Below are positions 15,722 to 44,561 of a stretch of DNA of 64,000 nucleotides, piece by piece. The translations under genes were made by a program, and so were the position numbers. The DNA is from an uncultured Gammaproteobacteria bacterium. Its GTDB lineage: Bacteria > Patescibacteriota > Microgenomatia > UBA10105 > UBA927. A model generated the notes under the pieces. The model saw only the letters and a list, made by a program, of their open reading frames with translations. It was not told where the DNA came from and searched no databases. Position 1 is the first letter of the stretch; each line of letters begins with the position of its first letter. Location: assembly GCA_964445435.1 (NCBI GenBank), contig CAYUKU010000001.1:183751-247750 (forward strand), given 5' to 3'.

Positions 15722-17272
15722 TTAAGGCTCCAGTCGCCAGAGCATATACGGTTTTTCTACGTAGAGCAAGCGTGCGTTCCAAAGTTCTGTATTTTTTTGC
15801 GCCGCGCGCATCCACTCATTGCACGTTTCCAGAGACGCATCCGGTGCAAGCATCCGAAAATCGCATATGATATAGAAAAAGGAAGGATTTGTTGTCAAGG
15901 GGACGAAATTTGTCCCTTCATGTATTATTCTGACGAGAGTTTTTCCATACAGCTGTTCAAGCGTGAAATATATACTCCCTGTCGGCCACGGATTAAGCGG
16001 TCGTTGTCTGTCAGCACGTAAAAACGCGAGTTCAAATTCAGCTTTCCTATCTTTCGCGTCACGGTATATGATCTCTGCAAGGGTCCTCGTCCGGTTATAG
16101 AACGATACGGCGGGCGTCATTTTGCGTTCACGGTAATAGGATTTGTAAGAAAAAAATACAAGGAACCCCGCCATCGCAATGCATCCCACCGCTTTGTGCC
16201 ATTTCCACAAAGCTGTAAGCCCAGCGGTACTAATAATAATCCCCAAAGGAAGAATGCTTATAAGATACGAAGGTACGAGTATGCCCCGGTACATCATTCC
16301 CAATGACACGGCACCCAGGCATAAAAGAAGTATCCAGGAGTACGGGAGACGTTTGTCCGGATGATGTTTTTGAATGGTGAGGTAGCCCGCTGCGGCAAGA
16401 GCGAAAAACAACATGCTGTTAAATACGGTTGTTTTATCAGTTTCCCACAGGAGCTCGTTGAATATGGCAAATGCAAAGTCGGGCCGTTGTTGCATGAGCG
16501 TTTCGACGGCAGTAAGTTGAAAGAATGTGATTTGGTCAAACGGGATTTGCCGGTAGGTGAGTAGAAGCCAGATTTCAAGACACACAATGCCTAAAATTAT
16601 CGGAATCACAAGGAATAGTTTGTTCTCGTAGCGGGGATACAGTTTTATCCATGCAGCAATAACCCAAAGGAAACTAAAAGGGACAACAAGTATAATCGCA
16701 TAGTGAAGATGAAGCCCGAGGAACAAAAGAAAGATAACAAGGCTGATGGTTGTGAGTGATTGGCGCGCTCCCGTCATGAGTACGGCGATTCCAGACACGA
16801 TAAGAGCCAAAAGATACGGAACATGAACTTGGCGGCTTATGAAAATGAGTTCAGGATGGATAGCGGCAAAAAAAGCTCCAAGAAGCCCGGCTTTCCAGCC
16901 GAAAAGATTTGCGGTTGCCCTATATATGAAAACGATCACGCTTGACATAAGCACCATCCAGAGGATGGCAGTGCCAAACACTGATCGTGTGAAAAACCAA
17001 AAAACAGCAAGGAGCCAGAAGTACACAGGCGAGTTGAGAATATATCCCTTTCCTCCTGATGCGAATGGGCCACGCATGATAAGTTCTCTTTGTTCAACTA
17101 CATGACGAGCTACGAGCATGTCACGGCTTTCATCATATCCCTGCTGTAGCCAGAGATAGTTCTCAAGATAACTGAACCGAAGAAGGATGCCTGCGAACAC
17201 AATTATGCCCAAGAGTACGCGGCGCTTATGAAGAAGAGCGCTGCCGATGATCGTGCGTGCCGAAAAGAGCAT
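15722..17272 (-). CDS. GT-C fold polytopic membrane glycosyltransferase (ArnT/PMT-like; uses polyprenyl-phosphate-sugar donors).
   Basis: About 12 predicted TM segments. N-terminal loop motif QQGYDESRDMLVARHVV resembles the D-E catalytic-loop motif of GT39/GT83 enzymes. Confidence 0.5.
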   Translation of the reverse strand: MLFSARTIIGSALLHKRRVLLGIIVFAGILLRFSYLENYLWLQQGYDESRDMLVARHVVEQRELIMRGPFASGGKGYILNSPVYFWLLAVFWFFTRSVFGTAILWMVLMSSVIVFIYRATANLFGWKAGLLGAFFAAIHPELIFISRQVHVPYLLALIVSGIAVLMTGARQSLTTISLVIFLLFLGLHLHYAIILVVPFSFLWVIAAWIKLYPRYENKLFLVIPIILGIVCLEIWLLLTYRQIPFDQITFFQLTAVETLMQQRPDFAFAIFNELLWETDKTTVFNSMLFFALAAAGYLTIQKHHPDKRLPYSWILLLCLGAVSLGMMYRGILVPSYLISILPLGIIISTAGLTALWKWHKAVGCIAMAGFLVFFSYKSYYRERKMTPAVSFYNRTRTLAEIIYRDAKDRKAEFELAFLRADRQRPLNPWPTGSIYFTLEQLYGKTLVRIIHEGTNFVPLTTNPSFFYIICDFRMLAPDASLETCNEWMRAAQKNTELWNARLLYVEKPYMLWRLEP

Positions 17273-17309
17273 ATTCTAAGTATCGTAGATCAACAAAAGA
17301 AAGCAAGGG

Positions 17310-18128
17310 TTAAGGTTCGGGTGAGGAAAATATGTTGAGGGCGTTACGTTGCGCGTATGTGTAGATTTCCTCCGCTTTCATTTCCGCCGAAGGATCGCTA
17401 ATAGGAAAGCCGGTTAGACTGTTGCATGTTAAAACTGATCCGTGCTCCCTGAAGCAGGATGTCCAGGCCCGGAGCGATTCCTTATGGGTTGCCGCAATGT
17501 TGATGTACTCTGGTGACACCAGGAGTTCATTCCACGCCAGAAGACCGAGAAAGACGAAGAGGCCAAGGCGATGCCATCGTCCTGGTGAGGCGCGCATGGC
17601 AAAATAGAGTGCAAGAAAGCCCGGCAGGAGAAACAAGACATAGCGTCCGGCGCGGGCCGCCTCAACGCCTAGACATGTCCGTCCGATAGCGCTGCCAGTG
17701 GTAAAAAGTACTGTCGTGCCGAGAAGCAAAAACTGCAGATGAATAAAGGATTGACTGGTCGCACGGGATTGAAATATACGCCATGCGTAATAGAAAAAAA
17801 GTAGTGTAAGTGCGCCCCAGAAAAATGCTCCCAATGCGACGCTCCCACCGGGAAGAGCACCTTCCCGAAATGAAAAGAAGTTCGCAAAGACCGATCCTAT
17901 AAATTGATGATACATTCGCCAGTCCCCTGCCGGATTTACCGGACAGGAAACAGCAGTATCAAGCGTGTAACGGTAAAAGAATAATAGAAAGCCGCCCACG
18001 AGCATGGTAAGTCCGATAATGTCATCTGTGTCTGCGTTTCCCTTATTGTGACGTAGCACGCTTCGTGCAAGAAGCAGTATTCCGATGAGTATCGCTGTCA
18101 AAGCGCCGAATCCGCTAAACAGCAACAA
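17310..18128 (-). CDS. Hypothetical polytopic membrane protein.
   Basis: Hydrophobic multi-TM ORF. No motif recognised. Confidence 0.4.
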   Translation of the reverse strand: MLLFSGFGALTAILIGILLLARSVLRHNKGNADTDDIIGLTMLVGGFLLFFYRYTLDTAVSCPVNPAGDWRMYHQFIGSVFANFFSFREGALPGGSVALGAFFWGALTLLFFYYAWRIFQSRATSQSFIHLQFLLLGTTVLFTTGSAIGRTCLGVEAARAGRYVLFLLPGFLALYFAMRASPGRWHRLGLFVFLGLLAWNELLVSPEYINIAATHKESLRAWTSCFREHGSVLTCNSLTGFPISDPSAEMKAEEIYTYAQRNALNIFSSPEP

Positions 18129-18262
18129 AACCCCTATGATCGAAATGGCGACATATCGTCCTCACCAGGTACTTATCAATAGATGGGCAGCGATACAAGA
18201 GAGAAAAAAAGGGAGGACGCCATACGATACATTTGGTACGACAGTGAATAGTTCGTACTGTT

Positions 18263-18640
18263 TCAAGGAAAAAACAGAAGCGGAAGAGAGAGATCAACGA
18301 CATGCCAGGCGCCAAAAAGTCGACGTATCAGCAGAAGGAATCCTATACAGGTGACCGAAAAAAGTCCTGCGTTAAGAAGAGCTTCCGTGCGCACGTCCCA
18401 GTCGCTTAGTGATGCGGTAAGGTATGTCAGAATATATCCTATTCCCTGTCGGTGTGGGCCGTGCTGATAAAAAAATAGTTGTGTGAGCGATGGGTTGTCA
18501 ATGAACGGTCGATACAGTTCGAGTTGGTCGGCATAGAGCGCCTCTCCCGAGTATGTTGAGACGAAAGAAAAAAATCTGATACATAAAACAGCAACTCCTA
18601 TGCCGAGAAACGCTACGGTAATGATGTTTGATCTTTTCAT
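18263..18640 (-). CDS. Hypothetical small membrane protein, possibly the N-terminal fragment of the 17310-18128 gene.
   Basis: 125-aa hydrophobic ORF separated from the next membrane ORF by only about 134 nt on the same strand. Confidence 0.3.
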   Translation of the reverse strand: MKRSNIITVAFLGIGVAVLCIRFFSFVSTYSGEALYADQLELYRPFIDNPSLTQLFFYQHGPHRQGIGYILTYLTASLSDWDVRTEALLNAGLFSVTCIGFLLLIRRLFGAWHVVDLSLPLLFFP

Positions 18641-18662
18641 CCTGCGAAAACGATAGATATAT

Positions 18663-20315
18663 ATGTATAGTAAGAATATGGGAAAAACAAGATTAATGGT
18701 GACCGCAGCATATCGCTTTATATGTCGTCACTGGATGTACATTCTTCTTTCAGTGTTATATTTCTGGCTTTTCCGACAGCAGCGCGTATGGATTGTTCAC
18801 AGTCCACATGATGATGAATGGTTCATTCGGATGGCTACATCCATCCGTGACGGGCATTGGCTGGGATCATATAATCATATGACACTCATTAAATTGCCGC
18901 TTTATCCGATTTTTTTGTCAGTTGTTTCAGCCCTTGGAGTACCCGTTGGTTTTGCACAGACCTTTTTGTATTGGTTTGCGGCGTCGTTGTTCTATTTTCT
19001 TGTATTCATTCAGCTTGCTTCCCCATTAAGCGGCGTACTATTTGCGTTTTTGCTTTATAATCCATTTCGATTAGCCGACGCGATGTTGTTTCGGGTCTTG
19101 AGGTCGGACATAAATGCGATATTGGCACTTTTCATTTTTGCGAGTTTCAGCGTTCTTTTATTGACTCCCCGCATGCAGTGGTGTACGAAGCGATGGTTTG
19201 CTTGGTTTTATGCATCAGCCTTTTTTCTTTCACTTTTTTACATCAACAGGGAAGAAAATATAACGTTTCTGTCCCTTGAAATGAGCGTACTTGGCTACCT
19301 CGCCTATAAAATGAGGTACGAAAAGCGGTTTCTCCGGCACATATTTATGTATGTACTGGTGAGTGGGGTGGCGTTATTTCTTGTGAGTATCCTGAATTAC
19401 TCCCGGTACGGAATTTTTGCCCCAACGGAGTTCCATACTGCGTGGTTCCGACGGGCATATTCCCAAATCAGCAGAGTGAAGCCACTAACAGTCAACAACA
19501 AAATTCCTATTCCAAAGGAGATCCGAAAGGAATTATACCATGCAAGCCCGGCGTTCCGGCAGTTGGAGCAATTTCTTGAGGGAGACATAGGATACGGGTG
19601 GGCAGAGGTGACATTCGATTTTACACACCTTGATCCGAACCTACGGGAAATAGGCGGCGACTATTTCCGCTGGGCATTGCGTGAGGCTGTCGCGGCAGCG
19701 GGGTATTATGAGTCACCGGATAGCGCGCGACTGTATTACCAAAGACTCGCGCATGAAATAGACTTTGCGTGTAGTGAGAAGCTCGTTGATTGTCGACTGA
19801 CGGGAAATGTATTTCTGCCCCATGCACTTATCTTCCATATTGCCGATATCATCCAAGACTTATCTGCAACGTTTTGGTTTACAATTACGTTTCGTGATAT
19901 TCATATGTTGTCGGAAAGGAGAGCAAATGACCAGGATCTTATTAAGATTTTCGAATCCGTTACGGGAACGCCATCGGATGATTTGGATGCGTCGCCAAAT
20001 GAGATCGTTATGAATATTATGTCTATGTATTCACGAGTTGGACTTGTGATGTACACTGCGCTAGTGTGTGCAGTGTTTCTGATTTTGGGTTCTTACCCAT
20101 TTTCCATTGTTCGGAAGAAATTTCCATGGGCTCTTCTGTTAATCATCTTTGTTGGTGTGTTGCCAATGGCAACATTTTTCGCCGCGTTTACCAGCGCCAA
20201 TAACGAAAATTATGCTGTCGACCCAACGTACCTGTCGGTATTTTACGTATCGTACCTTGTTTTATTCACACTAGGAATAACAGCAATGTACCGGATTGTA
20301 CATGATTCAATGTGA
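18663..20315 (+). CDS. GT-C-like polytopic membrane protein (putative lipid-linked-sugar glycosyltransferase).
   Basis: Many TM segments. N-terminal HSPHDDEWFIRMATSI loop resembles the ArnT/PMT D-E-x-x-Y/F-x-x-[IM] motif. Confidence 0.45.
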   Translation: MYSKNMGKTRLMVTAAYRFICRHWMYILLSVLYFWLFRQQRVWIVHSPHDDEWFIRMATSIRDGHWLGSYNHMTLIKLPLYPIFLSVVSALGVPVGFAQTFLYWFAASLFYFLVFIQLASPLSGVLFAFLLYNPFRLADAMLFRVLRSDINAILALFIFASFSVLLLTPRMQWCTKRWFAWFYASAFFLSLFYINREENITFLSLEMSVLGYLAYKMRYEKRFLRHIFMYVLVSGVALFLVSILNYSRYGIFAPTEFHTAWFRRAYSQISRVKPLTVNNKIPIPKEIRKELYHASPAFRQLEQFLEGDIGYGWAEVTFDFTHLDPNLREIGGDYFRWALREAVAAAGYYESPDSARLYYQRLAHEIDFACSEKLVDCRLTGNVFLPHALIFHIADIIQDLSATFWFTITFRDIHMLSERRANDQDLIKIFESVTGTPSDDLDASPNEIVMNIMSMYSRVGLVMYTALVCAVFLILGSYPFSIVRKKFPWALLLIIFVGVLPMATFFAAFTSANNENYAVDPTYLSVFYVSYLVLFTLGITAMYRIVHDSM

Positions 20316-22420: not shown

Positions 22421-22478
22421 GTCGGGCATTGTAGCAGCCTTATTTCCCGTTCTCAATACAAGTGGAAGCGCTGGTATA

Positions 22479-24468: not shown

Positions 24469-24520
24469 AATCCGAAGCGATCATACCACGGAATTTGGTA
24501 GAATACGCGAGATTATCTTT

Positions 24521-25714: not shown

Positions 25715-25719
25715 GTATC

Positions 25720-30053: not shown

Positions 30054-31472
30054 ATGAAACGGAAGGATGTGGTTATTATCGGCGCAGGCCCCGCGGGTCT
30101 CGGATGTGCAGAAGGTTTAATCCAACGGAAAGGTGTGTCCAAGCGTCCGCGGATTCATATTCTGGAGAAAAACGACAGAGCCGGCGGGCTTGCGCGTACT
30201 TATGAGTTTAGGGGATTATTCTTTGACATCGGTCCGCATAGGTTTTACACCAGGATTCCTCGGGTATTACGTTTATGGAAAAAAGTTCTCGGAAAAAAAT
30301 TCAGAAAAGTTAGACGAAAAACAAGAATCTATTACAACGGACAGCTTTTCTCCTATCCCCTGCGTTTGAAAGACCTAACTGAACAACTAGGTGTATTGGA
30401 GTTGCTTCGATGCGCAGGAAGCTATGTGAGTGCGCAACTTATGTATTTCGGCCGGACCCCAAAAACGTTTGAAGAGTGGATTACGAAACATTTCGGCAGC
30501 AGGTTGTTTGAGATGTTTTTCAAAACATATACTGAGAAAACATGGGGATTAGCCTGCAGTTCGATAAGCGCAAAATGGGCGTCCCAACGCATAAAGAATC
30601 TTAGCATAGCAGAGTTGGTTCGCACTTCAATTCTTGGTAAGAAGCCGAACGCCAAAAGTCTGGTTCACGAATTTTACTATCCTGAAAACGGGAGCGGGAA
30701 TATGTATGAGTCATGGGTACAACAGCTAAAAAGAGAGGGTGTGAAAGTCAGTCTGGATAGCAAAGTGGAGTTTATTTACCATGAACACAAACGCATAGTG
30801 CGTATTGATTGGAAGGAGCATCACGTTCGAAAATCTCAGCACGTGGATTATCTTTTCGTTAGTATGCCTCTTGTGACGTTCGTTCAGGCGCTCAGGCCAG
30901 CACCACCTGATGAAGTAATCACGGCGGCGAATGCATTATATTATAGGGATCACATTACCGTGAACCTGCGGATAACAGGGAAGAATCCTTTTCCCGACCA
31001 ATGGTTGTATATTCATTCACCGGACGTATCCATGGCGCGAGTTACCAATTACGCGAATTTTCTTGGAGGAAAAAAGCGGAATCAGCGATATTGGCCCATT
31101 GCAGTAGAGTATTTTGCGTTTCAGAAAGATGCGATTTGGAGGAAAAGTGACAATCAATTAATTGATCTGGCGAAACGAGAGCTCTCTCATATTGGTCTTG
31201 TTGGAACAGGAGCTTTTCTTGACGGTTTTGTGGTACGAGAAACCGAGTCATACCCTGTTTACTATGTGGATCATGAAGACGCATTTAATACAATAAAAAA
31301 CTACGTGAATTCCTTCCACAACGTTGTGTGTATCGGGAGGGGGGGCATGTATAAGTATAACAACATGGATCACGCCATTGAGAGTGGGATACTGGGTGCT
31401 GATATTTTTTTCCATGCACACGCCCCTCGCCCGTGGAGTTCGCCAGATGATCGCAAATACGTTGAGGATTAA
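30054..31472 (+). CDS. FAD-dependent UDP-galactopyranose mutase (Glf)-like flavoenzyme, long form.
   Basis: VVIIGAGPAGLGCAEGL FAD-binding GxGxxG. FFKTYTEKTWG matches the UGM FRGYTEKQWG block. C-terminal IGRGGMYKYNNMDHAIESG matches UGM VGRLGTYRYLDMDVTIAEA. Confidence 0.55.
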   Translation: MKRKDVVIIGAGPAGLGCAEGLIQRKGVSKRPRIHILEKNDRAGGLARTYEFRGLFFDIGPHRFYTRIPRVLRLWKKVLGKKFRKVRRKTRIYYNGQLFSYPLRLKDLTEQLGVLELLRCAGSYVSAQLMYFGRTPKTFEEWITKHFGSRLFEMFFKTYTEKTWGLACSSISAKWASQRIKNLSIAELVRTSILGKKPNAKSLVHEFYYPENGSGNMYESWVQQLKREGVKVSLDSKVEFIYHEHKRIVRIDWKEHHVRKSQHVDYLFVSMPLVTFVQALRPAPPDEVITAANALYYRDHITVNLRITGKNPFPDQWLYIHSPDVSMARVTNYANFLGGKKRNQRYWPIAVEYFAFQKDAIWRKSDNQLIDLAKRELSHIGLVGTGAFLDGFVVRETESYPVYYVDHEDAFNTIKNYVNSFHNVVCIGRGGMYKYNNMDHAIESGILGADIFFHAHAPRPWSSPDDRKYVED

Positions 31473-32872
31473 CGAGTACTGCTGTTTCGAGAAGACGTTA
31501 TACCGCAGATGATAATATGGATGCAAAGAATGCAGTAGGTTAATGCATGGTACATCACGGGAGTCATCATGCGCTTGAATACAGGGTCAGCCTCATACAC
31601 ATAGAATGCAGTAACAAGTATCTGCGTTGCAGCAATGCTCCCTATGAGAAGTATGCTCATTTGGTTCCACGTGTTGAGCCGAACTGCATACCTTCCTTGA
31701 AAGAGAAGCAACGGAAATAAGCCTAGTGTTATATATTTGATGCTATCAAAGATTCTTTCCAGAATTCGCAGAATTCGTATTGCAGCGTCATGTCCTCCTT
31801 CAGGAATATCTATAGGTGCATGAGAAAATGAGATCTTAGGTATGGCGGCAAGTGACATGAGTGTATAGGGAAATACCTGGTCGGTGAGTATTTTTTTTAC
31901 ATATCGTTGAAGTTCATTCCGTTTTTCAATATCTGAAAAAATATTTCTATCATAAAATTCGATAAATCTGAATACGTAGTCATCACGACTAGCGGTATGA
32001 TATTCGATTAGTTTTCCATGTATTCGAGATTCTTGTGCTCCAGCGTCTAATGAAAGATTAGATTGCATAATGATGCCCAGAAGATTAATATCGCTATAGA
32101 CTGTAATGCCGCGATAACTATGTAATGAGGCATTAAGATACATATAGATCACGGGAATAACGAGAAAAGAGCAAGACAACAGTACTGTCGATTTCCATAT
32201 TTTGATTGAACGATGCATCGCACCCAATAAAATAAACGCCGCAAAAGGGATAAGCAGGAACGCCGGCCGAAGCAGGAAGCCGATAGCAGAAAATCCCCAC
32301 ATCAAAAAAAACGCCTTTCTCGTAGGCTTACGAAACGCATATATGTATGCACAAGTTTGTAAAACGATCCAGCTTGCCGCAACGCCCTCGGTCATAAGAC
32401 GGCGTTCCCATATAGCCACAGGTACATTGCCCGCGCTTAGAGCGCCAATAGCAAACGCGAGCGAAACCGGTATATGGAGTGCCAATAGCGTGTAATACCA
32501 TGCAATTATCGCAGCTAAGCCGAATACTGCCTGAAACAACAGGAGGAGATTCGCGTTTTGGTGAATATCATCAGAATCATGGTTTTTTATTCTGGACTCG
32601 ATGCTAATAAGTGAAGCTGCCAGGACTGGATATACAGGTGTACGGATAGGGTTAATTACATGAGCTAGGGTTGGTTGGGTTATTATGCGTTTTCCAATTT
32701 CGTAATATTCTTGACTGTCCGGCTCAATAGCGATACCGGGTGAGGCAGAGGCAAGAAGTGCTCGTACACCCACCGCTATGATAACGATAACAAGGCCGAG
32801 CGTGTGTTTCGATGTCATAAGCGAAGCACCCGCAGTAAATGCATGGGAGATGTTGCGTATACGCGCAGCCAC
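31469..32872 (-). CDS. Polytopic membrane protein, GT-C-like (candidate lipid-linked-sugar glycosyltransferase).
   Basis: About 11 TM segments. N-terminal loop EPDSQEYYEIGKRI resembles the ArnT/PMT D-E...Y..I.R motif. TGA/ATG overlap with the upstream Glf-like gene. Confidence 0.4.
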   Translation of the reverse strand: MAARIRNISHAFTAGASLMTSKHTLGLVIVIIAVGVRALLASASPGIAIEPDSQEYYEIGKRIITQPTLAHVINPIRTPVYPVLAASLISIESRIKNHDSDDIHQNANLLLLFQAVFGLAAIIAWYYTLLALHIPVSLAFAIGALSAGNVPVAIWERRLMTEGVAASWIVLQTCAYIYAFRKPTRKAFFLMWGFSAIGFLLRPAFLLIPFAAFILLGAMHRSIKIWKSTVLLSCSFLVIPVIYMYLNASLHSYRGITVYSDINLLGIIMQSNLSLDAGAQESRIHGKLIEYHTASRDDYVFRFIEFYDRNIFSDIEKRNELQRYVKKILTDQVFPYTLMSLAAIPKISFSHAPIDIPEGGHDAAIRILRILERIFDSIKYITLGLFPLLLFQGRYAVRLNTWNQMSILLIGSIAATQILVTAFYVYEADPVFKRMMTPVMYHALTYCILCIHIIICGITSSRNSSTR

Positions 32873-33894
32873 AGTAGAATAAATAATGTGATAAACCAGA
32901 GTCCATCTCTATAACCAATAAAAAATGCGAGAGAGACCGGAAGATAAAATAAAATCAAACTACCGGCTATTGGCCGGTAATGTGACAGCGCAAATGTATC
33001 TTGTGTTCGCATGCGAAGATGATGGTAGCCCCATGCGCAAGTCCCCATAATGATAACGAATCCGACGGTAGGTATTTCAGCCACCAAACGTAGCCCAACG
33101 ACTAATAGTCCTGCAAGTTCGACTGGAATAATGTATCGATAAAGTAATAGCTGAGCGGGTTTAATGCCCAGTGACGTTACATAGGTTTTTACGCTGGCTC
33201 GAAGATCGTTTTTATAGTCGTCTATCTGATGAAACATCATTGTCCGGATGCTAAATATTTCCGCCCAAAGCAAAAAAATAAGAAGATCCAAGATGCGTGA
33301 AACGGGTAGCAAAGCGCTAATAGCAACCACCATTGCAACGGGCCTTAGCACGAGGGAACCCACTACAATCCCCCACACGCCTTTCTCTTTGAATCGCAAC
33401 GGCGGTGCAGAATAAAAGAACGCCAGTATATAACCTATAAAGGTGAGTATCATTGGGATTGGTTTTAGTTTTTCTGTACTTACAAAAACGGCGATAATAC
33501 CTATAACGAATGTTAAAAGGAGGACGCCCCTTCTGCCGGATTGTGAAATAAGCCCCCGATGTTTATTTGATCGGCGATCCTGCGTAAAATCAAAGTAGTC
33601 GTTTGCGACAAATAGGAAGGCAAAATAGCACCATACGGATGCAAGTACGAAAAAAAAAGTATGGTACGCGACCATGCCCGTTCCCAATACGTGATCCGTA
33701 TACTGGAGATACAGGATTGGGAGAAACACAAACGGCATGCGAACATGTGCCCAATCATGCCATCGTATGTACGCACCAAAACGTTCGACACGTTCTGACA
33801 GTATCCATGCGAGCATTTTAGGGAGTGGTGTTGCGATATGTGGAGCTGATGGATATTTTTTTCGTTGAGTGGGGACAAGGTGATGCGTGGGCAT
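32815..33894 (-). CDS. UbiA-family membrane prenyltransferase (polyprenyl-phosphate or aromatic prenyl/phosphoribosyl-transferase-like).
   Basis: First Asp-rich motif ANDYFDFTQDRRS (NDxxDxxxD) and second motif HQIDDYKNDLRAS. About 8 TM segments. Confidence 0.7.
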   Translation of the reverse strand: MPTHHLVPTQRKKYPSAPHIATPLPKMLAWILSERVERFGAYIRWHDWAHVRMPFVFLPILYLQYTDHVLGTGMVAYHTFFFVLASVWCYFAFLFVANDYFDFTQDRRSNKHRGLISQSGRRGVLLLTFVIGIIAVFVSTEKLKPIPMILTFIGYILAFFYSAPPLRFKEKGVWGIVVGSLVLRPVAMVVAISALLPVSRILDLLIFLLWAEIFSIRTMMFHQIDDYKNDLRASVKTYVTSLGIKPAQLLLYRYIIPVELAGLLVVGLRLVAEIPTVGFVIIMGTCAWGYHHLRMRTQDTFALSHYRPIAGSLILFYLPVSLAFFIGYRDGLWFITLFILLWLRVYATSPMHLLRVLRL

Positions 33895-33916
33895 GGATGC
33901 TTCTTAGCCTATTCAG

Positions 33917-35056
33917 TTAGGCAGATAAGTGATTTTCCTTCTGCGGGAAGAGGTGTTTAGTGAAGATAGTTTTTGCTGGCATGTGTTTTTTGGCGAGGAA
34001 GAATGTGCAGTATTTCTTGCACGCCGGATAGAAATCCCCTCGCCGCAGCCGTTTCCGGAATGCATGATATTGGGGAGAATGCCAAAATGACTCGACAGCA
34101 CCTTTCTTGACGTTCATTTTTAGATCGAAATCCTCTGATAGTTCAAATCCGAAACCACACGGAAGCACTCTCCCGTTGCTCATGATGTCCATGATGTGTT
34201 GGACGCGATCGCAAAAGTGCGTTTTCCAATATGACGGATCAGGGTTGTCTCTGTTGTAATTCGGGTGATACTGATATATCGGGAGCACATATTGAATATT
34301 GGTTCGCGTGTGAGACTGCTTCATCATGCTCACAACCGAGCGAAGATCATTCATGGCCTGTTTCTGTTCGATGGCATCCAGCGCATATGGGCTAGGCTTG
34401 CGTAGCGATTGATCGTACGGGATAAGTGGATTGTAATAGATATCCGACGCGTTAAATTTCTCCGCAAGCTTAGCGAACGGGATGATTTCGCGATAGTTAG
34501 CTTTCTGAATGACGAAGGAAAATCGAAGTTTGGGGATAACGGTAGCATTTTGCATTTTTTGGATGTTGACGATATTTCCCAATACAAGATCGTAATGATC
34601 TACTCCGTTTACAATCTTATATACGTTTTTCGTCGCGGCGTTTATGGAAATATGCATGCTGTCCCACTTGATTTTTACGAGGAATTTGGCAAACTCTTGT
34701 GTCAATGTGCTGCCATTTGTAATGATATGCCCGTAGAGCCCCTTTTTCTTTATGGTTTCCATGAGGGTCTGAATGCCTCGAAACAGCGTTGGCTCGCCTC
34801 CTCCACAAAGTGATATTTTTTTTACAGAGGAAGGCAAAGTTTTTATCAGCCTGATATAGTCATCAATCTGAAGGTCTGTGGTAAAAGTTGCCTTCGTGAG
34901 ATGTTGTTTGATGGCAGGAGAAAGATTTTCCCTCCAGCACATAGGACAGGCGTGATTACAAATATACCCCATGGGAAATAATCTTACCTCGTCGAGTATT
35001 TCCGGTTCCCTGATTTCGTCAATAATATTGTAAACGGTAGATTTAATGCCAAACAT
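33917..35056 (-). CDS. Radical SAM enzyme with a C-terminal Cys cluster (SPASM/twitch-like).
   Basis: CNHACPMCW CxxxCxxC about 35 aa from the N-terminus, GGGEPTL glycine-rich SAM motif. C-terminal LPCGFGF...YPACKKYC cysteines. Confidence 0.75.
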   Translation of the reverse strand: MFGIKSTVYNIIDEIREPEILDEVRLFPMGYICNHACPMCWRENLSPAIKQHLTKATFTTDLQIDDYIRLIKTLPSSVKKISLCGGGEPTLFRGIQTLMETIKKKGLYGHIITNGSTLTQEFAKFLVKIKWDSMHISINAATKNVYKIVNGVDHYDLVLGNIVNIQKMQNATVIPKLRFSFVIQKANYREIIPFAKLAEKFNASDIYYNPLIPYDQSLRKPSPYALDAIEQKQAMNDLRSVVSMMKQSHTRTNIQYVLPIYQYHPNYNRDNPDPSYWKTHFCDRVQHIMDIMSNGRVLPCGFGFELSEDFDLKMNVKKGAVESFWHSPQYHAFRKRLRRGDFYPACKKYCTFFLAKKHMPAKTIFTKHLFPQKENHLSA

Positions 35057-35111
35057 ATTGATAGCGCGACGAGATTAAGCTTATCACAGCATATTCTTCA
35101 AGACAATGCGT

Positions 35112-36921: not shown

Positions 36922-36927
36922 AGGAAT

Positions 36928-37734: not shown

Positions 37735-37745
37735 CTATCTTCACT

Positions 37746-38345
37746 ATGTCTACTTTTGTATACACGTCTTTTATCTGTTTTCTGTTTCTACTTTCGCTGC
37801 CGCTCCAGATCGTCATCGCGTTTCTGCTGGTTGCGACGTCCGGACGACCCGTTCTGTTTATGCAGAGGCGGATCGGAAAAGATGCTAAGCCATTTACGCT
37901 CTATAAGTTCCGGACGATGAAACGGGGCGCGCACAGAGAGCAGCCACAACTGATGCGGCGCAATGAGGCCGACGGCCCTGTGTTTAAAATTCATAACGAT
38001 CCCCGCTTCACGCGGGTAGGTCGCTTTCTGGCGCACACAGGACTCGATGAATTGCCGCAGTTGTACAATGTGCTTCTTGGTGATATGGCCCTGTTTGGCC
38101 CCCGTCCTCTTCCGGTTGCGGAAGCCGCCAGGTTGAAAGGTTGGCAACGGAAACGACACGCTATCAAACCCGGCATTATCTCTCCGTGGATCGTCAACGG
38201 CTACCATGCACAGTCATTTGACGCGTGGATGAAAAGCGATATCGCGTACATTCAGAAAAAGTCGCCATGGCATGATCTTGTGCTGGCTGTCCGGACGATG
38301 AAGCTTCTAGCCCGGCTTCTTCTCAGGGAAGTTGCAAAAACATAG
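37746..38345 (+). CDS. Small bacterial sugar transferase: an initiating polyprenyl-phosphate hexose-1-phosphate transferase (PglC/WbaP C-terminal-domain type).
   Basis: RPVLFMQRRIGKDAKPFTLYKFRTM, DELPQLYNVLLGDMALFGPRPL and PGIISPW blocks are diagnostic of the monotopic PGT family. One N-terminal re-entrant helix. Confidence 0.85.
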   Translation: MSTFVYTSFICFLFLLSLPLQIVIAFLLVATSGRPVLFMQRRIGKDAKPFTLYKFRTMKRGAHREQPQLMRRNEADGPVFKIHNDPRFTRVGRFLAHTGLDELPQLYNVLLGDMALFGPRPLPVAEAARLKGWQRKRHAIKPGIISPWIVNGYHAQSFDAWMKSDIAYIQKKSPWHDLVLAVRTMKLLARLLLREVAKT

Positions 38346-38384
38346 ACTGATAGCGTCTTTCCCGGTACAATACGAATCCTTCCT

Positions 38385-38882: not shown

Positions 38883-38974
38883 TACATGCCTGTTGACAAG
38901 AGAGAACGAAGAGTGGTACCAATGATATGGTCTGATATTGACAAGCTGTATAGTAGTTGATACTATAGGTTTGT

Positions 38975-40999
38975 ATGCCTGCTTCAGCGGAAACGGAAAC
39001 ACAAGGAGATCAGCCAGCTTCAGAATCGGGACTCGGTGAGCCCCAGATTCTTGACTTCAATACAATACTCAGTGAAGCAGTTTTAGAGCGATTTGAGGAG
39101 CAAGTTCATCGACTCGCCCGCGATCACGGGTATTTCTACGACAAGCCGGATGGCAATCCATATTCCCCTACCCGTATTTACGAAATGACGCAAAAAATAG
39201 GCGTTGGCGCACTTACCTCAAGCGGAAGCGTTGAAGTGATCGTGCCACAATTGGAACTTCGCCACAAACGGAATGCGGACCAGATATTTGCGCCTCAAGC
39301 GATAGCACGGGAGTTCGGAATCAAAGCAACGAGGCTCAAGGCAATTCAAAAATTTCTTGAGGATGGAACACTTTCTCCCCAGGAGGCGTTTAAGCTTGCC
39401 GGTAATCAGGATCCAAAAGCCGCTCTTGAAACCCACCAGGATGAATGGCAGGCGTGGGTAACGAGTACGCGCGAAGTACAGGCGCGGCAACAGCCGGTTG
39501 TGGCAGGTGATCGGGTTTCGGTTGGAGACGTTGAAATTATCATGGACGAGCAGGAAGCGCAAGATCGACCCTCACGCAAACGAGCTTCGCGTCTGTCCCG
39601 CGCGACGGCGCCGATCAGACGCCGGGTTATTCTTGCCGCTGTGGGAGGATTGACCATACTGGGCATGCTTCTGTCTGCCTGTTCGCCAAGGGGCGGCACC
39701 GGGGATATTCCAACGCAGCCACCCTCCTCTACCCCTGCAGGAGAACTGTTTACGCCCGATGCGCCGACAGCCGTTTCAACGGCGACTGTCAAGCCCACGG
39801 AACCGCCGACTCCAGCGCCATTTAGCGGAGCCACGGAAGCTGCTCCCACACAATCTGCCGTGTACGGGCCGCCGAATCTCGAACGTTCCGTCCGTTTGGC
39901 CGGATCCGGCGGAAGTGGGCGTAATGAAATTCTTACCAAAGCGGGTATCGATGAAGCGACGCTCGTTTCGTACGAAAATGCCGCCTACTCGTGGGCCGCG
40001 AATAACGGATATACCAAAAATCAGGTGAATATCGAATATCTCTTTGACGGACAGTCCTGGAATATGGTGCTCCGGGAGGTTTCATCCGGAAACTACATCT
40101 GGTCAGAAGACGGCGAGGGCGCCCTGATGACCTATCCCACCATTATAAGAGTTGACGCCCAGGGGCCGCACGCCGATCCAGAGATGGGAGCAAGAGTGTT
40201 GGAAGGAACAAAAGACGCCAAAGCGATGCTGGTCAACGGATTTGTGGTCGTCGTTCGCGGATCGGTGCAGATCGCCGGGAAAACATACTACACCGAGTGG
40301 TTTAATACGGTCACCGGCGAGTGGCAGCCGATCGCAGAGGTTCAGGCGGCCATCGTAGCCTCAGCGCCGGAATTTACACATGGTCTTGCACCCGATTTTG
40401 AATCGGCGATTGTGGTTAGGGAGTCGGATATTCCCGCCATTATCGCAAGCCTGAGGGCGGGCCCATCGCTGATTGATCCGGGTGCTCAGCCGACGAGATT
40501 TGCGGGCAGGGAGGGGGAATTGTCCGCGACGCCGAACGGATTAACAGAGCAGCTAAATATACCAGTGGGTACAGGTGATCTTGCTAATGTTGCGGTTGCC
40601 GCAACGATAAGAGTTGATTCAATGATGGGAGATTCGCAAGGATCTAAACTTATATTAATTTTGGAGGTAAAAAACGACACTTCCATGGGTCATGAGTCAA
40701 GAGGGTATATTAGGGTATATATAGGGGGTGCGGTTGCTGATCAAACTGTGTTCCCGACTGACGCAGCAACTAAACTTCAGGTAATAAGAAAAACTATAGG
40801 AGATGGCCTTATATGGCAACTTTTGGCCGGAACAAAAAGTTCGTTTTATGATGGTTCGTTCGTCAAGCAATTGTTTAACCAAAAAGGTTCAGTAACCGGC
40901 ACGTCGCTTCGTGATCTGTTGCTAAAGTGGAAAAATGAAGGGGTTGTTCCTTCTGAATTGGAAGACATGCTCATACCAATGTCAGGCGTTGGTTCCTAA
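38975..40999 (+). CDS. Hypothetical 674-aa bitopic surface protein. It has a roughly 215-aa cytoplasmic N-domain, one TM, a Pro/Thr-rich linker and a large extracytoplasmic domain.
   Basis: TM RRVILAAVGGLTILGMLLSAC followed by PTQPPSSTPAGELFTPDAPTAVSTATVKPTEPPTPAP linker. Consistent codon usage over 2 kb. Confidence 0.5.
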   Translation: MPASAETETQGDQPASESGLGEPQILDFNTILSEAVLERFEEQVHRLARDHGYFYDKPDGNPYSPTRIYEMTQKIGVGALTSSGSVEVIVPQLELRHKRNADQIFAPQAIAREFGIKATRLKAIQKFLEDGTLSPQEAFKLAGNQDPKAALETHQDEWQAWVTSTREVQARQQPVVAGDRVSVGDVEIIMDEQEAQDRPSRKRASRLSRATAPIRRRVILAAVGGLTILGMLLSACSPRGGTGDIPTQPPSSTPAGELFTPDAPTAVSTATVKPTEPPTPAPFSGATEAAPTQSAVYGPPNLERSVRLAGSGGSGRNEILTKAGIDEATLVSYENAAYSWAANNGYTKNQVNIEYLFDGQSWNMVLREVSSGNYIWSEDGEGALMTYPTIIRVDAQGPHADPEMGARVLEGTKDAKAMLVNGFVVVVRGSVQIAGKTYYTEWFNTVTGEWQPIAEVQAAIVASAPEFTHGLAPDFESAIVVRESDIPAIIASLRAGPSLIDPGAQPTRFAGREGELSATPNGLTEQLNIPVGTGDLANVAVAATIRVDSMMGDSQGSKLILILEVKNDTSMGHESRGYIRVYIGGAVADQTVFPTDAATKLQVIRKTIGDGLIWQLLAGTKSSFYDGSFVKQLFNQKGSVTGTSLRDLLLKWKNEGVVPSELEDMLIPMSGVGS

Positions 41000-41013
41000 A
41001 GTTATCCCACTTA

Positions 41014-41655
41014 TTGTCATTGACAATATTGTATAATAGTTTTGTGAACCGTAACTGGTGGTTTGTTGGTCTTCTTGTTTCCATAGTTGTGTTATTGCCT
41101 CTCTTAGGCTTATGGTGGTATCGTGGATATTTTTCTTCGGAGTTAGAGCCCGAAAAACTACGATTTCGTATCGATGCTGCCTTTGAAAATGCGTACCGCC
41201 AGAATGATCCTTATGCGATTTGGTTCAATCGGGTGGTATTTAAAAACGGCGATAAATTTGCATGGCGACCACCGCGAATTCTTGCAACTCATATTCCTAC
41301 CACTTATGAAGTTTCCGGATATGAATTTTATGGCGTTGTGACAAGATGGCGTCCGGATGTGAAATTGCTTCATATAAACACCTATATAGGTAAACCCCTG
41401 ACAGTTCGTTTTGATCCAGACTCTGATAGATCCATAGCTATTATTCCTAAGCTTGATGCTTACGGGAAAATTATTGGATCAAACATATTACCAGTTGTCC
41501 AGTCAATGTATGTGCCCGATTGGAATACACTTTTTTGTGAAAGCGACATTGTTTCTATAAAGGTGAGGTCGAAATTTTCGATAATGTTTGGTCGACCTGA
41601 TAATCCACTTATTCCAGTTAATATAGTATTAACGCAACGTCTTTGTCAGGTATGA
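41014..41655 (+). CDS. Hypothetical membrane-anchored protein (N-terminal TM plus beta-rich domain).
   Basis: TM WWFVGLLVSIVVLLPLLGLWWY. Overlaps the next gene by 13 nt in an operonic arrangement. Confidence 0.45.
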   Translation: MSLTILYNSFVNRNWWFVGLLVSIVVLLPLLGLWWYRGYFSSELEPEKLRFRIDAAFENAYRQNDPYAIWFNRVVFKNGDKFAWRPPRILATHIPTTYEVSGYEFYGVVTRWRPDVKLLHINTYIGKPLTVRFDPDSDRSIAIIPKLDAYGKIIGSNILPVVQSMYVPDWNTLFCESDIVSIKVRSKFSIMFGRPDNPLIPVNIVLTQRLCQV

Positions 41656-43229
41656 GACTCTGGACACCATTAATGGCCTTTCTTTTTGTCGTAATTACAT
41701 CTTGGTTTACGCCGGTTTTTGCTCAATATCCTACAACGCCAACACCAACCGGAGCGCCAAAAACGTGTTGTCAGAATTTGGACTGCGGGAGCTGTCCGGG
41801 GGATCCAAACAAAACATACGTTATGTGTCAGACATGCCCATCGTGGTGGAGCTGTGGAGATGGTGATTGTGGTTCTGGAGATAATGGCGGGGGCGGTTGT
41901 TATACAATCACAAATTGTAACGCATGTCATCCAACGAAATGTACGCCAACATGCGGTCTGGGAGGGTGTCCCGGTGGATGCGGAAACGTTGATGATTGTG
42001 GTGGTGTAGACTGCGCGGCCTGTCCAGGCGGCGGAGGTGGAGGCGGCGGTGGTGGAGGATGTGGAGATGGGACATGTGGTGCGGGAGAAACTTGTTCTAG
42101 TTGTCCAAATGATTGCGGCTTATGTCCTTCTGGTAACGCTCGTGCGCGGGGACACATTATTGCCTCAACTGTCACCACATGCGCGCAGGTCAGAGCGAGC
42201 ACCAATTACCTCGCCGAAACCCTTACACTTACGAACGCGTTACCCGCGTCTCAAAACATTTCAGGCGGTACATACGCTCAGTGGAATAATCTCGTGCCGA
42301 ACGCACACACGCTCTCCGACATTCCCCCTGCGGGGTATGTGCTTAAGCTTGCCTGCTGGCAGACGGACACGCCCGCAGCGCAGGGAACCGGCATGACTGC
42401 CGATGTGCCGACCGGCGGGACGCTTACCTGGAATTTGGGATATACCAACGGAACTGCCTGGATGCAGACACGGGGCGGTGATGTGTATGCCGCTATGGGT
42501 TTGTCATCTCCCATTCCCGTAGGGGCAAGTCCACGGTATGGACTTCTTGATGGCGGGAGCGGATTGCCCGGTGTTGCGACGTACGGGGTTTCGTATGATT
42601 TTGACAGTGATACCGGCAGTCTCGGCGAATCATATGTTTCCTCAACCGGCTGGCTTGCAAACGAGACGTACGCCGCCACGGATTTCTACGCACTTATGTA
42701 CCAGCGGTTTGATTCGCCGGCAGCTGATTATTCCGGGCCGACGACATTTACTTCCCAATTGGCAAGCGGGACATACTTCGTCGACGGTGATCTCACTATC
42801 GGCACAAACCCGTGGAATGTAGGAAGCGGGACGAGCATCGTTGTGCTCGTCAACGGCAATCTGACCATTAACCAAACGATTAATCTATCGGGTACCGGAT
42901 TCGTCGCTTTCATCGTCAATGGCAATATCACCGTCAGTCCGAACGTTGGGGTTGTCAACACGTCATCGGCGCCAGCACTGGAGGGAGTCTATATCACCTC
43001 CCCCACCGGCACCTTTACGACGGGCGCTTCCACAACTGCCGGGTCGGAGCGGTTTGTAGGTAGAGGTATTTTTGTCGCGGGAGACTTCAGTCTCACACGG
43101 GATCTGGATAGTTATGGCGTAAACAACACGACGTCTTCCGAGCTGTTTATCTACAATCCCCGGCTCCTTATCACGATGCCGGATGAAATGCGTGATCTTC
43201 CCGTGACCTGGCAGGAAGTCGCTCCGTAA
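41643..43229 (+). CDS. Secreted Cys-rich/Gly-rich protein with a beta-helix-like C-terminal domain, rich in N-x-S/T sequons.
   Basis: Signal peptide MSGMRLWTPLMAFLFVVITSWFTPVFAQ. About 40 Cys in 150 aa including CGDGTCGAGETCSSCPNDCGLCP-type repeats. (Gly)11 run. Repetitive VNGNLTINQTINLSGTGFVAFIVNGNITVSPNVG beta-strand pattern. Many NxT/NxS motifs (NGT, NET, NLT, NQT, NLS, NIT, NTS, NNTT). Confidence 0.55.
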   Translation: MSGMRLWTPLMAFLFVVITSWFTPVFAQYPTTPTPTGAPKTCCQNLDCGSCPGDPNKTYVMCQTCPSWWSCGDGDCGSGDNGGGGCYTITNCNACHPTKCTPTCGLGGCPGGCGNVDDCGGVDCAACPGGGGGGGGGGGCGDGTCGAGETCSSCPNDCGLCPSGNARARGHIIASTVTTCAQVRASTNYLAETLTLTNALPASQNISGGTYAQWNNLVPNAHTLSDIPPAGYVLKLACWQTDTPAAQGTGMTADVPTGGTLTWNLGYTNGTAWMQTRGGDVYAAMGLSSPIPVGASPRYGLLDGGSGLPGVATYGVSYDFDSDTGSLGESYVSSTGWLANETYAATDFYALMYQRFDSPAADYSGPTTFTSQLASGTYFVDGDLTIGTNPWNVGSGTSIVVLVNGNLTINQTINLSGTGFVAFIVNGNITVSPNVGVVNTSSAPALEGVYITSPTGTFTTGASTTAGSERFVGRGIFVAGDFSLTRDLDSYGVNNTTSSELFIYNPRLLITMPDEMRDLPVTWQEVAP

Positions 43230-43247
43230 AGTTGTTATACTCGAAGA

Positions 43248-44561
43248 ATGCGCCGTTTCCTCGTTGATGGTATTCTTTTTGCGGTTGTTCTTATCCTCTC
43301 CATCACAATGCTTGTCCCACAGCTCAAGCGGCATATGTTTTTCATCGATGAATACGAATTCATGCGCAAAAGCTATCTTTTCGATGTGTATTTTCTGAAA
43401 CAGAACCTGGGCGATCCGCGGTGGACCGATGCGGCGCTTGAGTCCGATGCGCCGCAGCCAAAGGTGGGGCCGTATATCTTCGGGCTTGCGCTTCATCTGT
43501 CCGGAGTTCGTGATATCGAAACTGCCTTCAGGCAAAGCGGGTTTTCGACGATTCAGGTCGATGGCCATCCGTGGTGGGAAGCGCTCTGGACGAAGGAGCC
43601 CTCGAAATTTCCCGACTCACTCGCACAGAGCTTCTCGTATATACTCATCGGCCGGCGTGCAGCGGCTGTGTTTAGCATCGCGTCGATACTTTTTGTCTTC
43701 CTTTTGGGTACGACGCTCCATAGCTCCGTATTGGGATTTATCGCGGCAATCCTGTTTCTTGTGAATCCCCTTTTTCGCCTCGAGGCGGGGTTTGCCATGA
43801 CTGATACCATGCAGCTTGCGTTTCTCCTTCTTACCGTTCTTCTTCTTGTATATTGGCGGGGGGCGTGGCAAAAAAAGAGCTATCCCTGGCTTCTGACTCT
43901 CAGTGTCGGCATTGGTCTTGCCGCATCACTCGCCGCGGGCGTAAAAGTGACGGGGATGCTTGCCATGTTGTTTGTGGGTATGCATCAGGTATATACATAC
44001 GCCCGGGAAGAGATGACGGCGGCGCTGAGGCGTATGCTCGTTCTTTCGACGGCAACCATGGTTGTTGTGTTTTGGAGCGTTTTTTATGCACTTCATCCGT
44101 ATATTCATACCGATACGTTCCGACAACTGCGCTACATGTATCAGGCGAGGATGAACGTCTCCCAGACGCTGTATGCGCAAACATATCCACACACGTATAT
44201 TCCCACCAGGACCCAAGCTCTCCGATACGTGCTTATGAGAACCATGTTGCCTTACTCGCTTTATGGGAATTTCTCCCATTCCTGGATTCCGTGGGACATG
44301 ATGCTTGTTGTAGGCGGGAGTTTGGTATTGATAAACGATGTGTTCGCGCGCTGGAAGAAAAGAGGGGCGCTGCCAAGGCTTGCGATTTTGCCGCTATGGA
44401 TTTCCTTTACGGCAGTTTCTCTCGTATGGTATCTCTCCCATGACTGGTCGCGGTACTATCTGCCGGTCGCTTCGGGGATCACGATTCTTGAGGCCTACAT
44501 GATTACGTATCTTTTCTTCCGGTTCGGCGGGGGCGTCCTGTATGATAGACTTCCCAAGTGA
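43248..44561 (+). CDS. GT-C-like polytopic membrane protein (candidate lipid-linked-sugar glycosyltransferase).
   Basis: About 11 TM segments. N-terminal loop FFIDEYEFMRKSYLF D-E motif. Confidence 0.5.
   Translation: MRRFLVDGILFAVVLILSITMLVPQLKRHMFFIDEYEFMRKSYLFDVYFLKQNLGDPRWTDAALESDAPQPKVGPYIFGLALHLSGVRDIETAFRQSGFSTIQVDGHPWWEALWTKEPSKFPDSLAQSFSYILIGRRAAAVFSIASILFVFLLGTTLHSSVLGFIAAILFLVNPLFRLEAGFAMTDTMQLAFLLLTVLLLVYWRGAWQKKSYPWLLTLSVGIGLAASLAAGVKVTGMLAMLFVGMHQVYTYAREEMTAALRRMLVLSTATMVVVFWSVFYALHPYIHTDTFRQLRYMYQARMNVSQTLYAQTYPHTYIPTRTQALRYVLMRTMLPYSLYGNFSHSWIPWDMMLVVGGSLVLINDVFARWKKRGALPRLAILPLWISFTAVSLVWYLSHDWSRYYLPVASGITILEAYMITYLFFRFGGGVLYDRLPK

Follow-up and report, generated by a model that had tools for sequence, protein, structure and literature searches.

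Four polytopic membrane proteins, here designated O1 to O4, are encoded between positions 15,722 and 44,561 of a 64,000-nucleotide stretch of DNA (contig CAYUKU010000001.1, positions 183,751 to 247,750; hereafter the window) from an uncultured bacterium of the candidate phyla radiation (CPR). They are read here as members of four separate polytopic families that share the N-terminal signature of GT-C(A) glycosyltransferases and act in surface glycosylation, a reading to which a probability of about 0.6 is assigned. The GT-C interpretation is well founded for O1 and O4; for O2 it is probable from gene context alone, and for O3 it is tentative. O1 (15722-17272, minus strand) is a polytopic membrane protein of 516 residues, O2 (18663-20315, plus strand) a membrane protein of 550 residues, and O4 (43248-44561, plus strand) a PMT-like protein of 437 residues; O3 was first read as 31469-32872 on the minus strand (467 residues), and the most likely start, at ATG 32818, gives instead 31469..32818 and 449 residues. 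All four reading frames were recovered, together with the peptides YDESRDMLVARHV, DDEWFIRMATSI, DSQEYYEIGKRI and IDEYEFMRKSYL quoted from them in a preliminary description of this DNA.

The acidic motif and its loop

The preliminary description credited each protein with an acidic D-E pair in the first extracytoplasmic loop and with 10-12 transmembrane (TM) helices. An acidic motif is present in all four, 6-10 residues past TM1, as D47-E48 in O1 and D33-E34 in O4; the acidic residues of O3 are non-adjacent (D52-x-x-E55), and the conserved pair of O2 is D50-D51, its E52 not being conserved. The helix count holds approximately, as crude hydropathy gives ~9-12 hydrophobic segments per protein. 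Within the aligned families the Asp of the motif is invariant, being D47 in the 7 sequences of the O1 family, D50 in the 56 of the O2 family and D52 in the 4 of the O3 family, with members 20-56% identical to the window protein; these invariance figures cover the O1, O2 and O3 families only. A D[DE] pair within 25 residues after TM1 was found in none of the 11 other TM proteins of the window, and E. coli ArnT (strain MG1655) carries one after its TM1 (PDETRY). Compared by eye, the five loops conform to D-[DES]-x2-3-aromatic/aliphatic followed by [KRST]-x-P-x-Y before TM2, which is offered as a description and not as a statistic. In solved GT-CA enzymes an essential, catalytic Asp is located at the tip of juxtamembrane helix 1 (JM1), which follows TM1 on the extracytoplasmic side, and in AftB the motif is DD (PMC12041299); the position of the invariant Asp after TM1 in O1, O2 and O3 appears to match this arrangement.

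The side of the membrane on which the motif lies was assigned by the positive-inside rule only. The loop is taken to be outside because the N-terminal tails carry basic but no acidic residues, with four Lys/Arg in O1, five in O2 before TM1 (residues 24-44) and a mean of two in the O3 family. The predicted location outside the membrane thus agrees with the preliminary description, except that O4 is ambiguous, since its tail has two Lys/Arg (MRRF) and its first loop of 115 residues also opens with several.

The four proteins had further been called paralogs within one cluster, which the comparisons do not bear out. No relationship was found by blastp among O1-O4, the broken gene described below and one Wzy_C protein, all pairwise E values for the four exceeding 0.05. 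Alignment of the family profiles with hhalign gave probabilities below 12%, with scores of 22-30 for real pairs versus 17-23 for reversed or unrelated controls; some of these alignments are collinear (HDD paired with END, and KGPFYP with RTPIYP), and no homology is claimed from them. As judged from sequence, O1-O4 are four separate families; in addition, O4 lies outside the sugar cluster proper.

Relationship of O1 and O4 to known GT-C families

Members of the O1 family share the motif G45-Y-D47-E48-S-R-D51 after TM1 in 7/7 sequences, down to 29% identity, and O1 ends in a soluble domain of ~140 residues with conserved Cys. Five of the seven members match PMT_2 (PF13231; best E = 6.2e-7, for homologs of 30-56% identity), precomputed Pfam assignments give PF13231, flagged 'weak', for the O1 homologs P0002 and P0003, and a PDB search with the family profile retrieves STT3A of human and dog (E = 0.0017), the alignment spanning TM2-TM5. 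Widening of the PMT_2 profile from the fetched loci (ArnT, O4, O1 hidden Markov model (HMM)) brought in no new members. Through its homologs, O1 is thus very probably a PMT_2/STT3-like transferase of GT-C type.

The closest comparison is with ArnT and the PMT_2 proteins (GT83/GT39-like). Besides the matches of the O1 family to PMT_2 and STT3A, the O1 sequence Y-D-E-S-R-x4-A-R parallels P-D-E-T-R-x4-S-R after TM1 of E. coli ArnT, both proteins combine a polytopic body with a C-terminal outside domain, and for both the substrate setting would be an exported lipid-linked or surface glycan (for O1 by analogy). The two differ in that O1 falls below every Pfam threshold and gives no significant hhalign match to the single ArnT sequence, and in that neither an ArnC-like synthase nor an ArnE/F flippase is found near O1. 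Its partner gene is instead a WecG/TagA-family glycosyltransferase (14987..15721, minus strand; Pfam and NCBIfam scans) directly downstream, and the O1-WecG pair is kept in a related genome, a 746-kb metagenomic contig with homologs of O1 and O2.

O4 matches Pfam PMT (PF02366) at E = 3e-6 and 27.4 bits, above the gathering score of 22.7, with residues 139-290 aligned to profile positions 90-243 of 245. The acidic motif (I-D33-E34) opens the long first loop, as in PMT enzymes (GT39), whose donor is polyprenyl-phosphate-mannose. O4 departs from the canonical PMT architecture, however, being far shorter at 437 residues, matching the profile in part and showing neither the luminal MIR domain nor the C-terminal four-TM module (PMT_4TMC) at E <= 1 in Pfam; nor is a Ppm1/DPMS gene seen in the window. 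O4 is quite likely a PMT-like transferase of GT-C type, to judge from these profile matches.

The gene for O4 stands after three exported or membrane-anchored proteins (38975..43229, plus strand) and before rpmH-rnpA-yidD-yidC-jag. Upstream of it are encoded a protein of 674 residues with a long Pro/Thr/Ala-rich linker after a single TM helix, one of 213 residues with an N-terminal TM anchor, and one of 528 residues that is Cys/Gly-rich and has a signal peptide and the domain DUF7305. Exported Pro/Thr-rich proteins of this kind would be typical acceptors of PMT enzymes, and these are plausible candidate acceptors for O-glycosylation by O4, which may reasonably be regarded as a putative protein O-glycosyltransferase. 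The conserved rpmH-rnpA-yidD-yidC-jag/KhpB block directly after O4 occupies ~44581-46583 (plus strand), and the guanine-plus-cytosine content is 52-55% at ~38-46 kb as compared with ~44-47% in the sugar cluster.

Assignment of all four proteins to the GT-C type, as proposed in the preliminary description, accordingly stands for O4 (PF02366) and for O1 through its family (PMT_2 and STT3A). Profile searches with O2 and O3 gave no GT-C family hit, an outcome that the preliminary description had named as refuting the assignment, and for O2 the assignment is retained only through gene context in other genomes.

The O2 family and its genomic neighborhood

A word-indexed search returned five relatives of O2, and an exhaustive profile search was then used, in which the family comprises 3,874 cluster representatives (50% identity) at E <= 1e-3, with 2,037 at 1e-30 or better. 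Neither Pfam nor NCBIfam gave a match to any of 56 members, to nine proteins that are long or fused, or to three typical members, and the family profile found nothing in the PDB. D50 is present in 56/56 members (20-40% identity) and D51 in at least 90%. Other conserved features are [HY]-D-D-x-L-F after TM1, W-L-G, T-L-x-K-G-P, P134, R147, W-x-T-R-E-E-G-x-W (R196-E197), N245/Y249, R340, G-G-W-F-x-W-A-x-R-D-A-V and a Cys pair. When hydropathy is averaged over the alignment, all Lys/Arg-rich loops fall on one face of the membrane, and all invariant residues, the Cys pair and a domain of ~210 residues fall on the opposite face, which points to an active site on the outer side and to seven TM helices followed by the ~210-residue outside domain and three further TM helices. 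A layout of this form (seven TM, outside domain, three TM) fits the hydropathy and Lys/Arg distribution of both O2 and O3; the GT-C(A) fold has an N-terminal module of seven TM helices, in which two juxtamembrane helices separate TM1 from TM2. AlphaFold2 models of the two, built on shallow alignments, place two short helices in loop 1, at a predicted local distance difference test score (pLDDT) of ~48 that is too low to be trusted.

Some members of the family are much longer than O2. P0021-P0023, P0051, P0124 and P0156 (1,100-1,490 residues) have large extra regions, and P0035, P0042, P0113 and P0152 (750-800 residues) have an N-terminal extension of ~200 residues, in both cases without a Pfam match; a fused GT2 domain, sought by Pfam in nine fused or long proteins (750-1,490 residues), was found in none.

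A genome scan for the O2 family returned 211 loci, of which 80 were kept; all neighborhood counts refer to these 80, which span Thermodesulfobacteriota, Nitrospirota, Verrucomicrobiota, Acidobacteriota, Proteobacteria, Chloroflexota, Cyanobacteria, Cohnella and four CPR lineages. When neighboring reading frames were clustered without bias, the dominant partner proved to be a GT2 enzyme with four C-terminal TM helices (GT2-4TM), the GT2 cluster being represented in 64/80 loci. A full-length GT2-4TM gene lies within 6 kb of the O2-family gene in 47 loci; it precedes that gene on the same strand in 36 of them, and 24 of the 36 show either an overlap or a distance within 200 bp. The best matches of a representative GT2-4TM protein are Pyrococcus DPMS (5mlz, 4.8e-17), ArnC (1e-12) and GtrB (sll0501), and the NCBIfam models that score highest with it are AglJ, dolichyl-P-hexose transferase and PpgS. 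Because its best matches are these DPMS/ArnC/GtrB enzymes and AglJ/PpgS models, the partner is identified from its sequence as a polyprenyl-phosphate-sugar synthase. To our knowledge, the only consumers of polyprenyl-phosphate monosaccharides are GT-C-type transferases.

A GtrA-like gene is present at ~14/80 loci, and also at a Bacteroidia locus (L007); in Saccharibacteria, Parcubacteria, Moranbacteria and Cohnella the gene order is GT2-4TM, (GtrA), O2-family gene. This is the layout of three-component extracytoplasmic glycosylation systems, whose third component is a GT-C enzyme (PMC8035078, PMC11127046), and for this reason the O2 family is likely to supply the third-component transferase. 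The resemblance to Gtr-type and CsbB-GtcA-YfhO-type systems, in which O2-family genes follow a DPMS/GtrB-like GT2, sometimes with GtrA between, extends over Saccharibacteria, Parcubacteria, Moranbacteria, Cohnella, Bacteroidia, Verrucomicrobiota and others. The family nevertheless matches none of the known third-component families, among them GtrC/Glucos_trans_II, YfhO and PMT_2, and its GT2 partner has four C-terminal TM helices, like archaeal DPMS, rather than one or two. A further difference is that in the window and in the closest relatives GT2-4TM and GtrA are missing, and O2 stands there beside O1 and the DegT/GFO genes. Since the window and these relatives have no DPMS-like GT2, the context argument is transferred to O2 from distant members of its family. 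By this analogy O2 is probably a GT-C-type transferase.

The genes convergent with O2 encode a DegT-type aminotransferase (20307-21449, minus strand) and a GFO/IDH/MocA oxidoreductase (21428-22525, minus strand), an arrangement kept in the related genome. Several further features of O2-family loci were recorded. Two O2-family genes are found in 8/80 loci. A second conserved polytopic protein of ~760 residues, with an acidic AELDASW after TM1 and no annotation, is encoded just upstream of the O2-family gene in 11/80 loci (L039, L046, L047, L057 and others), in Verrucomicrobiota (Opitutaceae). At the metagenomic locus L009 a PMT_2-like protein (3462-4802, 446 residues) is encoded directly upstream of the O2 homolog (4881-6422), which echoes the pairing of O1 and O2 in the window and in its relatives L001-L003.

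O3 and the UbiA operon

The start of O3 is placed at ATG 32818, as in its NCBI form (P0013) and its homologs, and not at GTG 32872; this ATG overlaps the stop codon of the preceding UbiA gene as ATGA. O3 is rare, with four relatives among 5.8 billion proteins plus one locus in a JGI metagenome, and no homologs were found in GTDB genomes. E50, D52, Y56 and Y57 are invariant (4/4), as are W155-E-R, R202-P and E427-A-D429-P, and the predicted layout is ~7 TM helices, an outside domain of ~130 residues and three TM helices.

O3 is the last gene of an operon on the minus strand, at the head of which are an ABC-2 permease (36928-37734), an ABC ATPase (36187-36921) and a GT4 glycosyltransferase (35112-36206), followed by a radical SAM/SPASM enzyme (33917..35056) directly upstream of a UbiA-superfamily prenyltransferase (32815..33894; NDxxDxxxD at residues 98-106). 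The same six genes are found in 3/3 contexts (the window, L005 and L006), with overlap of UbiA and O3 in all three and O3 always last. The ABC pair is likely an exporter of a lipid-linked polymer.

Known pentofuranose side chains are made by a UbiA-type polyprenyl-phosphoribose synthase, a flippase, a GT-C enzyme (GT136) and auxiliary epimerases, and in GT136 the residues D31, E34 and Y35 after TM1 are essential (ORF12; PMC11127046). In O3 the sequence D52-S-Q-E55-Y56 has this spacing at the level of the motif only, D52 and Y56 being invariant and E55 being replaced by Asp in the homologs. Alignment by hhalign lays the O3 segment IEPDSQEYYEIGKR on the ArnT segment WQPDETRYAEISRE, without reaching significance. 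Comparison with the known systems (GT136; mycobacterial UbiA/DprE1/DprE2/Aft-Emb; Pseudomonas TfpW; PMC11127046) shows three points of likeness: a UbiA-family gene adjoins, and is translationally coupled to, polytopic O3 with its D-x-x-E-Y after TM1; the module lies in an ABC-transporter-dependent glycan locus; and the radical SAM enzyme sits where the known systems have epimerases. The differences are that the UbiA of the window has no specific similarity to DPPR synthase (8j8j), that the operon has the radical SAM/SPASM gene instead of a HAD/PAP2 phosphatase, DprE1/E2, an SDR epimerase or a MATE/SMR flippase, and that O3, unlike GT136, has a large outside domain between TM7 and TM8 and no C-terminal carbohydrate-binding module. 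No DprE-like, SDR epimerase, MATE or SMR gene was called in the operon, the Wzx-like gene being 15 kb away. Foldseek with the O3 model lists DPY19, STT3A, AftB and PglB among its top matches, none significant, and this result is not counted as evidence. By analogy with the pentofuranose systems it is a tentative suggestion, somewhat short of an even chance, that O3 is a GT-C-type transferase using a donor made by UbiA; participation of the radical SAM enzyme as a donor-remodeling step is pure inference.

Convergent with O3 is a gene for a flavin adenine dinucleotide protein (30054-31472, plus strand) that exceeds the threshold of the NCBIfam model NF005548 (PRK07208, a model titled just 'hypothetical protein') and bears a weaker resemblance to UDP-galactopyranose mutase; it is not kept at the other O3 loci.

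Donor supply and a possible pathway

The preliminary description proposed that lipid-linked donors could be supplied by the GT2 enzymes of the window or by the UbiA module. The first proposal is not supported: none of the three GT2 proteins (12021-12986 and 12952-13983, plus strand; 23590-24468, minus strand) is DPM1/ArnC/GtrB-like, and no GtrA is found in the window. All three are ordinary GT2 enzymes with NPD-type motifs, whose best NCBIfam models are PgaC, MftF and EpsD-like; their matches to the dolichyl-P-hexose transferase and PpgS models of NCBIfam are very weak, and against a DPMS-like HMM they score as generic GT2. Lipid-monosaccharide synthases may be encoded elsewhere in the genome, of which 64 kb are visible here. 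The second proposal survives in part, in that UbiA fits O3, to which it is coupled in 3/3 contexts, but shows no specific similarity to phosphoribosyl-transferring UbiA enzymes and does not fit the other three proteins.

In the pathway envisaged, a glycopolymer would be built on a cytoplasmic lipid carrier by the Bac_transf, WecG, GT4 and GT2 enzymes, with amino sugars made by the DegT and GFO enzymes, and would be exported by the ABC transporters. At the outer face O1, O2 and O3 would each add a side-chain sugar from a polyprenyl-phosphate-linked monosaccharide; for O3, the neighboring UbiA would produce this donor and the radical SAM enzyme would modify it. O4 would more likely O-glycosylate the exported Pro/Thr-rich proteins encoded just upstream of it.

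A bolder version combines two propositions, namely that the radical SAM-UbiA-O3 module represents a form of the three-component pentofuranose pathway that works without oxygen and that the O2 family is a new and very widespread GT-C family; that both hold together is rather improbable. A highly divergent UbiA would load a sugar phosphate (e.g., ribose-5-phosphate from phosphoribosyl pyrophosphate) onto polyprenyl phosphate, the radical SAM/SPASM enzyme would replace DprE1/DprE2 or SDR epimerases and remodel the lipid-linked sugar, and O3, as founder of a new GT-C family, would transfer it to the ABC-exported polymer. The O2 family (more than 3,800 clusters at 50% identity) would be the third component of DPMS-type systems across many phyla.

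Evidence against the assignment and alternative explanations

Several results weigh against the GT-C interpretation of the four families. O1 itself reaches no Pfam threshold (0 families at E <= 1), the match of O4 covers only part of the PMT profile (positions 90-243), and the topology of the O4 N terminus is ambiguous. O2 and O3 show no significant GT-C similarity in Pfam, NCBIfam, PDB HMM searches or hhalign against O1 and ArnT, and among the families hhalign scores rise only marginally above those of reversed controls. The AlphaFold2 models of O2 (pLDDT 48.7) and O3 (pLDDT 48.3) are unreliable, and Foldseek with the O2 model retrieved no GT-C protein. The window contains no DPMS/GtrB-like GT2 and no GtrA, and the closest CPR relatives of O2 (L001-L003) also have no DPMS-like GT2 nearby. 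For the UbiA protein the best PDB match is chlorophyll synthase (4e-4), with no match to 8j8j (DPPR synthase) at E <= 10, and no 5'-phosphatase was identified in the O3 operon.

It is very unlikely that the shared D-E motif is a mere coincidence of short acidic loop pairs with no functional meaning. An adjacent acidic pair in a loop of 25 residues is admittedly not rare a priori, the O3 pair is non-adjacent, E52 of O2 is not conserved, and the four proteins are not detectably homologous; however, no member of the aligned families (7, 56 and 4 sequences) departs from the Asp, the motif occurs in 0/11 of the other TM proteins of the window, and O1 and O4 are recognized as GT-C on independent grounds. 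A more serious alternative, to which a minor but real share of the probability is given, is that O2, O3 or both are outward-facing glycan-assembly proteins of another kind, such as a Wzy-type polymerase, a WaaL-type ligase, an enzyme acting on undecaprenyl-pyrophosphate-glycans, a flippase or a scaffold. This would be consistent with the want of any profile or structural link of O2 and O3 to GT-C, with a window rich in polymer-handling proteins (three Wzy_C, one Wzx-like, two ABC exporters) that encodes no lipid-monosaccharide synthase, and with the conserved charged residues that polytopic enzymes of Wzy/WaaL type also carry in outside loops. Against this alternative stand the genes for DPMS/GtrB-type synthases and for GtrA that are linked to the O2 family, whose products synthesize and translocate polyprenyl-phosphate monosaccharides, the placement of the invariant Asp behind TM1, which matches that of GT-CA, and the finding that O2 and O3 match neither Wzy_C (PF04932) nor other polymerase/ligase models.

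The O3 operon also admits an explanation of its own, considered unlikely, in which radical SAM and UbiA carry out prenylation of a lipid or cofactor (ether-lipid-like, quinone-like or a prenyl anchor of a polymer) and O3 is accessory. UbiA best matches chlorophyll synthase and generic or archaeal prenyltransferase models rather than DPPR synthase, phosphatase, DprE-like and SDR epimerase genes are missing from the operon, and the fold of O3 has no trustworthy model. Set against these points are the 3/3 contexts that include GT4 and an ABC-2 exporter amid sugar-modifying genes, the D-x-x-E-Y spacing of O3, which is the essential spacing of GT136, the alignment of its loop (by eye and by hhalign) with ArnT PDETRYAEI, and the precedents for UbiA beside GT-C in the mycobacterial, Pseudomonas and Citrobacter pentofuranose systems. 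The reading of O1-O4 as four families with a GT-C(A) signature is preferred, with the gradation between them given above.

GT-C enzymes in a glycan locus are ordinary; what goes beyond routine is the size of the O2 family together with its lack of a library match, and the rare O3 module. Knowledge of CPR bacteria comes almost entirely from genomes, and it is through their surfaces that they attach to hosts. If the preferred reading is true, no fewer than four different outward-facing glycosyltransferases modify the surface polymers and proteins of one such bacterium. Large, phylogenetically widespread and missing from the family libraries that were searched, the O2 family seems to provide the transferase of a DPMS-GtrA-type operon that is very common, so that its characterization, for which Cohnella, Comamonas and Paraburkholderia offer cultivable carriers, would annotate thousands of 'hypothetical' membrane proteins. 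The O3 module would extend the UbiA/GT-C pentofuranose pathway (GT136, 2024) to a form containing a radical SAM enzyme.

Other genes of the window

Gene families were named by Pfam and NCBIfam scans, which show a long cell-surface glycan locus spanning the window. Its transferases comprise several GT4, the three GT2, the one WecG/TagA and one initiating phosphoglycosyl transferase of the Bac_transf (PglC/WbaP) type (37746..38345, plus strand). Sugar modification is represented by two DegT aminotransferases, three GFO/IDH/MocA oxidoreductases and one methyltransferase. Named homologs are few, and all are from Patescibacteria.

The genes for export and polymer handling include two ABC-2/ABC-ATPase exporter pairs (9203-10674 and 36187-37734), three Wzy_C-domain proteins of the O-antigen ligase/polymerase type (4406-6379, 10445-12037 and 46600-47790) and one Polysacc_synt flippase of the Wzx/MOP type (48184..49413, minus strand), besides which the window showed no candidate for flipping lipid-linked sugars. 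The presence of this set within a single window of 64 kb suggests more than one surface polymer or route of attachment.

Between O1 and O2 lie two frames of 125 residues (18263-18640) and 272 residues (17310-18128) that look like parts of a single multi-TM gene (17310..18640, minus strand), broken by an in-frame stop (ISTW*GRY) and by a frameshift near 18263. An alternative genetic code was rejected as the explanation of the stop, because there is a frameshift as well and table 11 serves for every other gene. In the N-terminal piece a basic tail and TM1 are followed by a loop that contains acidic residues, and the gene, for which the Pfam and NCBIfam scans gave no family match, may be the remnant of a fifth enzyme of this type. 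In the related genome no gene lies between the homologs of O1 and O2.

A protein encoded at 3388-4398 (plus strand) strongly matches the plant-type 'reversibly glycosylated polypeptide' family (PF03214, E = 7.6e-48) and no NCBIfam model. Plant members of PF03214 are UDP-arabinopyranose mutases, and the match is a hint that this bacterium may form arabinofuranose from a nucleotide sugar.

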